IMG/VR virus record: IMGVR_UViG_2974697560_000001 | From: a virus | Lineage: Duplodnaviria; Heunggongvirae; Uroviricota; Caudoviricetes | DNA: 64,000 nt | Reading direction: 5' to 3' (one strand) | In this document: piece after piece, positions 23,618 to 25,300 of the stretch | How the letters are laid out: every line of letters starts with the position of its first letter | Numbering within the stretch: position 1 is the first letter of the stretch | The notes under the pieces: generated by a model | What the model was told of the DNA's origin: nothing | What the model saw: only the letters and a program-made list of their open reading frames with translations | Databases searched by the model: none | Translations under genes and position numbers: made by a program

Positions 23618-25270
23618 ATGTCAAACGCACTTAACACTGCTGCCAAGGGTCTGAACAAGACTCCTCAGTCTCAGAAGGCTAAGGCAGGTCAGGTAAAGAA
23701 CAACGCTGGTGGATTCGTCTTCCAGGTTTCTGACCAGGCTCGCCTAGAGCGATTCCTGATTCTGGGTGTTGATGGTGGCACATATTACGTCAAGGAGAGC
23801 ACTCACGCTCGTTCCAACGTACAATTCCTCAACGAGATGATTGAGCGAGACGAAGCCTCTGTACTGAACACCATTGTGGACGTGTCCGTCAATGGTCGTG
23901 CATACAAGCAGTCTCCTGCCCTGTTCGCTCTAGCCTCTGTCATTGCCAATGGTAAGGACAAGCAGGCGGTCAAGGCGGTATTCAATCGTGTCGTTCGTAC
24001 AGGCACTCACCTGTATGAGCTTCTGAACTACCTTACTTCAATGAACGTTGGATGGGGTCGTTCAAAGCGAGAGATTGTTGCTTCTTGGTTCGACCGAGAT
24101 GCTGACAAGCTGGCTTACCAGGCGGTCAAGTACCGTTCTCGTAAGTTTGGTGAGCAGACTTGGACGCTCCGAGACGTAATGCGTCTTTCCCACCCACGAG
24201 ATGTGAACACATCTGTTGCAGATTTCGTTCTCGGCAAGCCTCACGATGCTACCGATGACCTTCGGGTTATCGAGGGCTTCAAGAAGATGCAGAGGGCTCA
24301 GTCTGTCGAGGACGTTCACAGCGTTCTCCGTGAGTACGAGATACTTTCATGGGAGACAATCCCAACTCAGTTCCTCAAGGACGTGAGTGTATGGAAGCGA
24401 ATCTTCGCTAACGGACAGCTCCGTGGCCAGGCTCTTGTTCGAAACATCACTCGCCTTGCGCGAATTGGTGCTTTCCAGGACATGCGCTTTGCTGCTGCGT
24501 ATGCAGGACAGCTCACAAATCAGGAGATGATTGTACAGACTCGTCTGCACCCAATCAACTTCCTGAATGCGTCTGTCGTGTACAACGAAGGCCAGATGAA
24601 GACCGTAAGGGACCGCTGGGGCTTCGAGCGCGAGGAGCGTGTAAAGGACTGGACAACTGAGAGTGTTATTGCGGATGCCCTCAATGAGGGATTCCACAAG
24701 GCATTCAAGGCTGTCGAGCCTGCCGGTAAGCGAACGATGCTGGCTCTGGATGTATCAGGCTCCATGAGTGCAAAGGCTAACGGTCTCGACCTTAGCTGTG
24801 CTCAGGTTTCTGCTGCAATGTCTATGGCCATTGCTCGTACCGAGCCTGCTCACATCATCCGTGGATTCACGTCCAATGGATATGGCTGGTCTGGTCGCAA
24901 CAGTGACCTCACCGACCTTGGTATCAGCGCTAAGACAGACCTTGCTACGGCAATGCGTAATGTCCAGCGTCATAACTGGGGCGGTACGGACTGTAGCCTT
25001 CCAATGCGTTGGGCTCTGGACCGTGGAATTGAAGTAGACACGTTCATCATTATCACCGATAATGACACGTGGGCTGGTGAAATCCACCCATTCCAGGCGC
25101 TCAAGGAGTACCGTAAGAAGACTGGCATTCCAGCTCGTCTGGCAGTTCTGGGAGTTCAGGCAACTGAATTCACCATCGCTGACCCAAGCGATGCAGGAAT
25201 GATGGACTTCGTAGGGTTTGACAGCAATGCACCTCGCGTGCTGGCTGACTTCTCCGCAGGTCGCATCTGA
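23618..25270 (+). CDS. rsr: Ro60-related protein (TROVE domain) with C-terminal vWA/MIDAS domain
   Basis: [30 protein letters not shown] TROVE N-terminus; [9 protein letters not shown] MIDAS; 550 aa. Confidence 0.85.
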   Translation: [550 protein letters not shown]

Positions 25271-25272
25271 GC

Positions 25273-25300
25273 AAATCCCCTCTTCGGAGGGGATTTTTGC
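25273..25300 (+). terminator. intrinsic terminator AAATCCCCTC-TTCG-GAGGGGATTT+TTTT
   Basis: read directly after the rsr stop. Confidence 0.75.

Follow-up and report, generated by a model that had tools for sequence, protein, structure and literature searches.

Candidate Y RNA genes among the tRNA genes upstream of a Ro60 ortholog in Streptomyces phage Samisti12

A Ro60 ortholog in the tRNA-rich region of Samisti12

We examined a 64,000-nucleotide (nt) stretch of viral DNA (IMG/VR record IMGVR_UViG_2974697560_000001), here called the window, in which a Ro60/Rsr gene is preceded by four unannotated elements that resemble Y RNAs. The window is 100% identical to positions 59895-123894 of Streptomyces phage Samisti12 (MF347639.1), a member of the Stanwilliamsviridae and of SEA-PHAGES cluster BE, for which about 90 relatives are sequenced and whose hosts are tractable Streptomyces. 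The features at the center of this analysis are as follows, in coordinates of the window.

23618-25270, + strand: Ro60/Rsr ortholog, SEA_SAMISTI12_126 (gp126), TROVE HEAT-repeat ring plus vWA/MIDAS domain (open reading frame, Pfam, structure matches, GenBank)
13327-13412, + strand: Y RNA-like element A, 86 nt, short form with no T-arm, ending 4 nt before tRNA-Gly (signature scan, covariance model R1)
15004-15156, + strand: Y RNA-like element B, 153 nt, past tRNA-Pro and a degenerate cloverleaf, ending 11 nt before an RlaP-like gene (signature scan, R1)
17994-18138, + strand: Y RNA-like element C, YrlA type, 145 nt, starting 2 nt after tRNA-Ile (Rfam YrlA, covariation)
22734-22844, + strand: Y RNA-like element D, 111 nt, 773 nt upstream of the Ro start codon (signature scan, R1)

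The 550-amino acid product of the Ro open reading frame (ORF) includes the N-terminal string from which a first-pass annotation, made by a model from the DNA letters, had recognized a Ro60 ortholog with TROVE and vWA domains and a MIDAS. Database comparisons bear this out: Pfam TROVE matches at E=6.5e-31 (108 bits; cut-off 23) and vWA_Ro60 at E=4.6e-59 (199.5 bits; cut-off 27.7), and the protein aligns end to end with Deinococcus radiodurans Rsr (2NVO; E=6.2e-96, the top match among solved structures) and over its full length with human RO60 (9NEN; E=1.3e-78) and Xenopus Ro60 (1YVP; E=2.2e-77). The MIDAS signature DVSGS (DxSxS) is readable in the ORF and matches the Rsr segment in the alignment, as do the further MIDAS segments GGTDC and ITDNDTW; metal binding is putative. 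On the evidence of these alignments, the ORF at 23618-25270 is a genuine full-length Ro60/Rsr ortholog, and we infer a ring-shaped fold whose outer surface would bind the stem of a Y RNA and whose central hole would accept single-stranded RNA ends. The gene span proposed at first, 23618-25300, has the right start and overshoots the stop codon (25270) by 30 nt. GenBank already labels the coding sequence (CDS) 'Ro-like RNA binding protein', and the neighbors in that record are small hypothetical genes. A search of genome contigs with the Ro protein returned seven loci, none of them from Streptomyces.

Four Y RNA-like elements share a common architecture

Elements A to D all lie on the + strand, as does Ro, all are intergenic, and none is annotated in GenBank; they are spread over 10.3 kb upstream of Ro and are interleaved with tRNA genes. 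Their features make it probable that they are four Y RNA-like genes. They follow a common plan, in which the 5' and 3' ends form a 7-bp terminal helix, followed by a bulged C, a GNCGAA-type motif, a second helix of ~9 bp, the sequence UUAUC, and a variable module; after the bulged C come G-U and, in some copies, A-U pairs. The motif GNCGAAN0-1G lies near the 5' end of bacterial Y RNAs, where it is a proposed Rsr contact and has been compared to GGUCCGA, the sequence that Xenopus Ro60 contacts (Chen et al. 2014, PMC4201824). Its strict form fits A (GUCGAACG), C (GUCGAAG), and D (GUCGAAAG), and B (GUCGAUUG) nearly fits.

A T-arm is found in B, C, and D, and the full tRNA-like module solely in C. 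Element A combines the terminal helix UGUGGGU/AUCCACA and GUCGAACG with a 9-bp second helix (GAAAGUUGG/CCGACUUUC) and UUAUC, and has orthologs in phages Daubenski, Mildred21, Enygma, and others. Element B has the terminal helix UUUGGGU/ACCUAAA, GUCGAUUG, the second helix, UUAUC, a T-arm (CUAGG-UUCGAUU-CCUAG), an acceptor-like hairpin, and a long hairpin; its orthologs in Daubenski and Mildred21 have GUCGAAAG where Samisti12 has GUCGAUUG. Element D consists of the terminal helix UGCGGGU/AUCCGCA, GUCGAAAG, UUAUC, and a T-arm (GUAGG-UUCGAAU-CCUAC), with no D-arm, and its Daubenski ortholog begins 2 nt after tRNA-Asp.

Some of the relatives carry tRNA labels within such elements. A 72-nt 'tRNA-Ser(tga)' of Mildred21 (13007-13078 of locus L012) falls inside a Y RNA-like element at 13003-13117, and a 62-nt 'tRNA-Ser(cga)' of Sham (13105-13166 of L003) falls inside one at 13097-13227; these elements were detected by the signature or by R1. 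In both cases the T-arm module of a Y RNA has probably been taken for a tRNA, an error that some deposited phage records would then contain.

Element C has a YrlA-type tRNA-like module

Element C occupies a 176-nt unannotated gap that opens right after tRNA-Ile(tat), 5.5 kb upstream of Ro on the same strand. A permissive Rfam search (E<=10) of positions 10000-50000 of the window (40 kb) returned a full-length match to YrlA (RF02553) at 18009-18123 (+), with 33.1 bits and E=0.0015 in the 40 kb. RF02553 independently matches the syntenic site in Faust (36.5 bits) and in Sham (35.4 bits, full length), which represent another subfamily. The first-pass annotation had proposed a covariance search and anticipated a Y RNA with a tRNA-like module; element C appears to be such an RNA, and the sub-threshold match lies outside all of the regions that had been nominated. 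Its fallback candidate, 'one of the degenerate tRNA-like elements', was right in spirit for C.

The terminal helix of C is formed by 17994-18000 and 18132-18138, with the bulged C at 18001 and GUCGAAG at 17999-18005; the second helix (18005-18014/18115-18124) leads into UUAUC (18014-18018). Within it lies a predicted permuted-tRNA module, composed of an anticodon-stem equivalent (18025-18029/18092-18096), a T-arm (18035-18051; GGGGG-UUCGAAU-CCUCC), a closed acceptor-like hairpin (18052-18073), and a D-arm (18076-18090; ACUC-AAUGGCA-GAGU). T-arm, closed hairpin, and D-arm follow one another in circularly permuted tRNA order, and a permuted-tRNA module is the hallmark of YrlA. The connectors are a 5-nt variable loop, UA at tRNA positions 8-9, and a single A at position 26. 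All C-type ortholog copies start NNNGGGUCGA and finish UAUCCNNN, with the two NNN triplets mutually complementary. The C ortholog lies ~1.7 kb upstream of Ro in Faust and Sham, and less than 1.2 kb upstream in the contigs L153, L162, L167, and L171.

RNAalifold, applied to a MAFFT alignment of 15 C orthologs, recovers the terminal and second helices, the T-arm, the acceptor-like hairpin, and the D-arm, with compensatory changes in 13 of the 32 pairs. When the anticodon-stem equivalent is added, the resulting 39-pair structure has 93.5% of alignment cells paired, compared with 37-53% for slid partners, and its covariation score of 0.425 (0.04-0.12 when slid) is reached by none of 500 shuffles. 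Helices 1 and 2 are paired in 95.8% and 85.9% of cells, with six pairs showing compensatory changes (class C alignment A1); the T-arm (100%), acceptor-like hairpin (99%), D-arm (100%), and anticodon-stem equivalent (85%) each have compensatory changes as well. The fold z-score of C is -3.1.

The elements form a family that tracks Ro genes

The signature GGGTCGA-N8-20-GTTATCTT occurs three times in the window compared with 0.00 expected, and four times if one position is relaxed to K; all of the matches are on the + strand and intergenic. For comparison we assembled 40 viral loci (827 kb) fetched by Ro protein similarity. The strict 5' motif has 93 occurrences in them on the strand of Ro and 4 on the opposite strand, and a looser motif gives 117 sites upstream of Ro and 14 downstream. 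A 7-bp partner in which no more than one pair is G-U exists for 46 of 66 distinct 5'-motif sites, where shuffles predict 5.2 and a swap control gives 9.7%; this version replaced a terminal-pairing test with unlimited G-U pairs, which was uninformative (96 versus 65 expected).

A covariance model built from class C alone (R1) recovers A (31.2 bits, E=2e-4), B (28.7 bits), and D (28.7 bits, E=9e-4; these E-values are approximate) at exactly the coordinates that had been derived independently, and scores the Daubenski B ortholog at 39.3 bits. Full-length R1 matches of 46-72 bits lie 40-500 nt upstream of Ro in contigs whose Ro proteins are 35-56% identical to that of Samisti12 (72.5 bits in L167, 71.7 in L171, 68 in L153, and 60.5 in L162), and matches of 48-64 bits lie upstream of Ro in Poribacteria and Chthonomonas genomes. 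Short forms with no tRNA module are also found directly upstream of Ro in the distant contigs L153, L162, and L171. None of the R1-positive Ro-adjacent RNAs at eight loci (L153, L162, L167, L171, and L175-L178) is reported by RF02553 at its gathering threshold. The curated YrlA model therefore appears to be too narrow for this lineage of Ro-linked RNAs, which it misses in phages and in bacteria (Poribacteria, Chthonomonas).

An alignment of 64 distinct sequences across the family has 93.6% of cells paired (39-47% when slid), with compensatory changes in 38 of 39 pairs, including all 18 of helices 1 and 2. For class D (11 orthologs), compensatory changes affect one pair of the terminal helix and three of the T-arm. 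RNAalifold on 11 class B orthologs gives 39 pairs, five of them compensatory, and the minimum free energy (MFE) fold of B yields the same helices. The fold z-score of A is -2.7. A CGA/UCG mini-helix suggested by RNAalifold in class D was not adopted; its bases are invariant, and a misaligned second helix is the probable cause.

In 807 kb of viral DNA unselected for Ro, R1 matches just three loci at E<=1e-3, and each codes for a Ro protein: phage Jay2Jay and the contigs L105 and L038. The latter two were found via the RNA motif alone, and a TROVE gene lies directly downstream on the same strand. A scan of IMG/VR with a 15-base signature gave mostly chance single matches, with the complete architecture solely in L038, L105, and L093. 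Together these comparisons show that Y RNA-like elements, as recognized by motif and predicted structure, track Ro genes across distant phages and bacteria.

One further contig, L175 (CAINGU010000031.1), deposited as part of an 'uncultured cyanobacterium' metagenome-assembled genome (MAG), codes for a Ro protein 57% identical to that of the phage and has two Y RNA-like elements directly upstream. It also carries more than 20 tRNA genes within 9.6 kb and appears to be phage DNA assigned to a bacterial MAG during binning.

The tRNA array and RNA-repair genes around the elements

The features flanking the elements and the Ro gene, and the RNA-repair genes of the window, are listed here.

13292-13320, + strand: sigma-70-like promoter match TTGACA-17-TAAAGT with TG, ending 7 nt before element A (consensus scan only)
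13417-13489, + strand: tRNA-Gly(tcc), 4 nt 3' of element A (ARAGORN, Rfam)
14921-14997, + strand: degenerate unannotated cloverleaf, between tRNA-Pro and element B (fold z=-4.2, 0 of 200 shuffles)
15168-15689, + strand: RlaP-like Pol-beta-family nucleotidyltransferase, RNA-repair-associated, directly 3' of element B (Pfam RlaP 26.1 bits, cut-off 23)
17918-17992, + strand: tRNA-Ile(tat), abutting the 5' end of element C (ARAGORN, Rfam)
25279-25292, + strand: terminator-like hairpin and T-run after the Ro stop codon (weak, 5 pairs)
43042-44142, + strand: Rnl1-type RNA ligase (Pfam RNA_lig_T4_1, E=1.5e-14)
44677-45582, + strand: T4 Pnkp-like polynucleotide kinase/phosphatase (Pfam AAA_33, 2.5e-25; HAD_PNKP, 1e-53)

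ARAGORN predicts 42 tRNAs and one tmRNA in the window, in keeping with the tRNA-rich setting described in the first-pass annotation, and Rfam at gathering thresholds finds nothing beyond tRNAs and tmRNA in the whole window. ARAGORN does not call the cloverleaf at 14921-14997, in which the acceptor stem has 7 bp, the 'anticodon' stem 8 bp and a loop of 5 nt, and the T-like arm 4 bp; a CCA tail is encoded. From the promoter match upstream of A, transcription would begin at about 13327, where the 5' end of A is predicted, and similar 10/12 matches precede tRNA-Pro (14711-14739) and tRNA-Ile (17857-17885). Several other sites in the array were rejected as Y RNAs and assigned to tRNA-tRNA junctions, namely those found by a T-arm-to-D-arm pattern (14819, 27756, and 34159) and the R1 or YrlA matches at 27753-27813, 28761-28844, 33557-33691, and 34156-34209.

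The adjacency of element B and the RlaP-like gene is kept in all Boydwoodruffvirinae loci, and an RlaP-like homolog (46% identical) lies ~1 kb 3' of Ro in the distant viral contig L171 (~12866). RtcB has no Pfam match among the tested ORFs of >=300 amino acids in the window, the remaining ones having other assigned functions, which agrees with the earlier remark that no RtcB lies nearby. Neither RtcA, RtcR, nor PNPase is annotated in the inspected part of the GenBank record. The Rnl1 ligase/Pnkp pair starts 17.8 kb past the Ro stop codon. These are the ligase and kinase-phosphatase that had been proposed, at ~18 kb, as the counterpart of Ro; the genes are real, and the pairing has no comparative support, because Rnl1 and Pnkp do not travel with Ro elsewhere (neither was found near Ro in the other Ro loci, save for one weak Rnl1 match).

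Alternative explanations for the elements

Several observations weigh against taking all four elements as Ro-binding Y RNAs that act as bacterial ones do. Element C scores below the RF02553 gathering threshold (33.1 versus 69 bits), a shortfall that we do not count against the RNA because the curated model is narrow, and its single-sequence MFE fold favors a local hairpin (18002-18021) over the long-range second helix that covariation backs. Class C is absent at its site in the Ro-encoding phages Daubenski, Mildred21, Enygma, and others, and the stretches fetched from them have no match of class C strength (>40 bits). The single-sequence fold z-scores of B (-1.5) and D (-1.1) are not significant. 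Within the family, 31 of 64 sequences fit the strict GNCGAAN0-1G motif and 51 of 64 the looser GNCG[AG][AU], and B of Samisti12 itself deviates (GUCGAUUG). R1, derived from a single class, has rough E-values and gives weak false matches at tandem-tRNA junctions (e.g., 27753-27813 and 33557-33691). The family-wide alignment (A4) was fitted to the model and is biased toward the structure, which is tempered by the large margin and by the agreement with the MAFFT-based test. The promoter calls come from consensus matches; expression, RNA ends, and Ro binding of A to D are predictions from the sequence; and a coupling to PNPase is an extrapolation from D. radiodurans, Salmonella, and phage phiLo.

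Given its absence from several Ro-encoding relatives, class C is not indispensable in its tRNA-like form. Relatives with no class C keep A, B, and D-like elements along with Ro; in them the rule of at least one tRNA-like Y RNA per species may not hold, unless B, with its T-arm and acceptor-like hairpin, serves in that role. The same relatives bear on the possibility that C is the sole true Ro partner, with A, B, and D acting in cis in the tRNA operons as leader or processing structures whose shared stem goes back to duplication. The position of A exactly at a predicted transcription start, the tRNAs or tRNA-like structures that A, B, and D flank, the weak folding scores of B and D, and the missing T-arm of A would all suit such leaders. 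However, what is conserved in A, B, and D is the Ro-binding type of stem, with its terminal helix, bulged C, and GNCGAA motif; short forms with no tRNA module stand directly upstream of Ro in L153, L162, and L171; and second, non-tRNA-like Y RNAs bind Ro in bacteria and in phiLo (PMC4201824; PMC12135203). Ro-encoding relatives at whose site class C is absent also retain A, B, and D, and we consider a role for C alone unlikely.

The constant position of B directly 5' of the RlaP-like gene, and the RlaP homolog beside Ro in L171, raise the question of whether the RNAs are real and yet serve the RNA-repair and tRNA enzymes (RlaP-like, Rnl1, Pnkp, and a CCA-adding enzyme) as decoys or substrates, with Ro dispensable. 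It also fits that RNase P cuts Mycobacterium smegmatis YrlA, which gains CCA (PMC4201824). This seems improbable to us, as the RNAs, unlike Rnl1 and Pnkp (the weak Rnl1 match aside), accompany Ro everywhere, and as the motif that they conserve is the one implicated in contacting Ro.

Still less credible is that the elements are decayed tRNA genes or fused tRNA halves left by turnover of the array, functionless and unrelated to Ro. Their T-arm and D-arm sequences are tRNA-derived, both YrlA-type models weakly match true tandem-tRNA junctions, and degenerate tRNA-like elements are present in the array. The junctions, however, have no closed self-complementary acceptor hairpin, a structure that covaries in class C, and no terminal helix, GNCGAA motif, or UUAUC; moreover, the elements are kept across two phage subfamilies and beside bacterial Ro genes that have no tRNA array, and R1 is Ro-specific in unselected DNA.

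The partner RNAs nominated in the first-pass annotation (25271-25312, 33695-33913, 35303-35515, 14552-14768, and 13490-13820) can be set aside with near certainty, since none has an Rfam YrlA or Y RNA match at E<=10, a full-length R1 match, or the GNCGAA/UUAUC signature; even where 33696-33913 folds better than shuffles (z=-3.3), it has no Y RNA features, and the nearby R1 match at 33557-33691 is a tandem-tRNA junction that ends before 33695. Of the others, 25271-25312 holds just the small terminator-like hairpin, 35303-35515 is not significantly structured (z=-0.4 for 35273-35515), 14552-14768 is an annotated CDS, and 13490-13820 contains tRNA-Gln. The outcome named at the outset as fatal to a Ro/Y RNA system, no Y RNA-like fold anywhere in the genome together with a TROVE similarity that fails on searching, is not what we find; there are four elements and a Pfam TROVE match.

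Relationship to known Ro60/Y RNA systems and a proposed mechanism

The reading that we favor, and hold to be probable from these predictions, is that Samisti12 codes for a Ro60/Rsr ring protein and four candidate Y RNA paralogs, of which C is of the tRNA-mimicking YrlA type. The locus is a further example of the known phage Ro60/Y RNA system and not a new kind of system. Phage Ro60 has been known since the mycobacteriophage genome papers (PMC4201824), YrlA-like RNAs were reported in 22 phages in 2014 (PMC4201824), and a phage Ro60/Yrl/PNPase complex was described in 2025 (PMC12135203); with the gene itself already annotated, the novelty implied in the first-pass annotation was overstated. What is new is modest: the Y RNAs of the BE phages were previously unannotated, they number four, they are dispersed over ~10 kb in a tRNA array, and they abut tRNAs. 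The main text of PMC4201824 makes no mention of Streptomyces phages, and Y RNAs of the Samisti12 type are not annotated in any GenBank record inspected.

As with bacterial YrlA and YrlB (PMC4201824; RF02553), the Samisti12 elements lie upstream of the Ro60 ortholog on the same strand and have a long stem of 5' and 3' ends with GNCGAAN0-1G near the 5' end. The T-arm, closed acceptor-like stem, D-arm, and variable-loop equivalents of the YrlA module are found in C, and B and D recall M. smegmatis YrlB, a shorter additional Y RNA with a T-arm only; in that species a single precursor upstream of rsr yields both YrlA and YrlB (PMC4201824). Two or more Y RNAs are present in the characterized bacteria (two are named in Salmonella Typhimurium and in M. 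smegmatis) and Samisti12 has four paralogs; the Y RNAs of S. Typhimurium and D. radiodurans are encoded no more than 2 kb from Rsr, whereas the Samisti12 elements extend over 10.3 kb. They also differ from bacterial YrlA and YrlB in standing flush against tRNA genes and in the strong conservation of UUAUC after the second helix. Mycobacteriophage, CcrColossus, and Bacillus phage G (Pedulla 2003 as cited in PMC4201824; Chen 2014) are likewise large tRNA-rich phages with a Ro ortholog and YrlA-like sequences; Samisti12 differs from them in host genus and phage family (Stanwilliamsviridae).

The closest precedent for function is Thermus phage phiLo (NAR 2025, PMC12135203), which also has a phage Ro60 with more than one phage Y RNA-like RNA upstream. 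The phiLo Ro60 binds two phage Yrl RNAs, Yrl1 and Yrl2, and in vitro it assembles into a ternary complex that includes host PNPase (PMC12135203); these RNAs are recognized by a stem-bulge-stem and a CGAA motif, as are the candidates here, and the system is the precedent for hijacking PNPase into a RYPER-like complex. In phiLo the two Yrls are beside the gene, with binding and complex established by experiment, whereas in Samisti12 the four candidates lie in a large tRNA/tmRNA array. In D. radiodurans and Salmonella, a Y RNA tethers Rsr to PNPase (PMC4201824; PMC7790460). The Ro ring is common to the D. radiodurans RYPER (Rsr-Yrn1-PNPase), the Salmonella rsr-yrlBA-rtcBA operon, and Samisti12, in which the Y RNA tether is putative. 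RtcB adjoins rsr in the Salmonella operon and none is found in the Samisti12 window, where the RNA-repair genes are Rnl1, Pnkp, and the RlaP-like gene, only the last of which adjoins a Y RNA-like element. Metazoan Y RNAs (RF00019) resemble the elements in their terminal helix and bulged C followed by G-U/A-U pairs, and the 5' motif resembles GGUCCGA (PMC4201824), but they differ in that the Samisti12 elements have a tRNA-like loop module and no Pol III terminator-type 3' end; RF00019 has no match at E<=10 in positions 10000-50000.

The spacing to tRNAs, the cloverleaf before B, and the promoter match before A suggest co-transcription of A to D with the adjoining tRNAs, possibly from sigma-70-like promoters, and tRNA-type release. 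Because A, C, and the D ortholog lie within 2-4 nt of tRNAs, we infer that the RNA ends could be freed by tRNA-processing nucleases, i.e., RNase P and the nucleases that mature tRNA 3' ends. The conserved stem would dock on the outer surface of Ro, and the variable tRNA-like modules may act as gates or tethers that link Ro to an effector. The likeliest effector would be the host 3'-5' exoribonuclease PNPase, and a host enzyme would be needed because no PNPase is annotated in the inspected part of the phage record. A RYPER-like complex of this kind may degrade or trim structured or misfolded RNAs during infection, possible targets being phage tRNA/tmRNA precursors, host rRNA or tRNA, and precursors of CRISPR RNAs (crRNAs). 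By analogy, then, it is probable that the phage ribonucleoprotein guides a host 3'-5' exonuclease toward RNAs that are structured or misfolded.

A more speculative extension, which we put forward as a long shot, is that Y RNAs matured by the tRNA machinery give one Ro ring four adaptor modules. This would amount to a multi-adaptor surveillance of the ~45 tRNA/tmRNA genes of the phage, coupled to repair by the RlaP-like protein and Rnl1/Pnkp in place of RtcB, and/or redirecting host PNPase away from host defence.

A phage Ro60 that had no known RNA partner now has four candidates with exact coordinates. With these coordinates and a tractable group of Streptomyces phages, the purpose of Ro60 in viruses and the function of the tRNA-like module of Y RNAs become testable. 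Because phage Ro60/Y RNA biology is established elsewhere, the value of the locus lies in annotation and in a good experimental system, with no new principle.

Other RNAs and genes in the array

A conserved, unannotated tRNA-like RNA lies at 28356-28482 (+; Rfam tRNA, 35.7 bits) and is found, also unannotated, in 81 Streptomyces phage records. Its acceptor stem, D-arm, and T-arm are intact, and a 74-nt irregular arm takes the place of the anticodon stem-loop. Base pairs of the acceptor stem, T-arm, and long arm have undergone compensatory changes among 14 orthologs, and the apical hairpin varies yet is always paired; the conserved strings are GAAAUGC..UGUCGAA / AGUAGAUAWCAGAGUAGCA and a GCUAGCCU tail. 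As it contains GUCGAACG, it was considered as a fifth Ro ligand and rejected, since the GUC is paired and not bulged and the topology is different.

Two sites may be decaying tRNA genes: 15703-15779 (+), a weak tRNA match (30.8 bits) with no GenBank annotation, and 36426-36497 (+), annotated as a second tRNA-Tyr, with 32 bits in Rfam and no ARAGORN call. The structured spacer at 33696-33913 (+), 218 nt from tRNA-Ala to tRNA-Lys, has a GC-rich terminal hairpin (GCCCUACGAUAUCAUAGGGC-like) and matches no Rfam family. Sub-threshold matches to the manA RNA motif (RF01745; cut-off 55.2 bits) sit between tRNA genes shortly upstream of the Y RNA cluster in Faust (L002, 11447-11602, 46.3 bits) and Sham (L003, 11476-11632, 38.8 bits), and the permissive Rfam search found no equivalent in positions 10000-50000 of the window. 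Protein genes amid the tRNA array, all on the + strand, code for a vWA-TerF-like protein (34484-35272), a Band-7/SPFH protein (31595-32464), and a 651-amino acid PhoD-like phosphatase (19609-21564), the last of which GenBank labels just 'hydrolase'.

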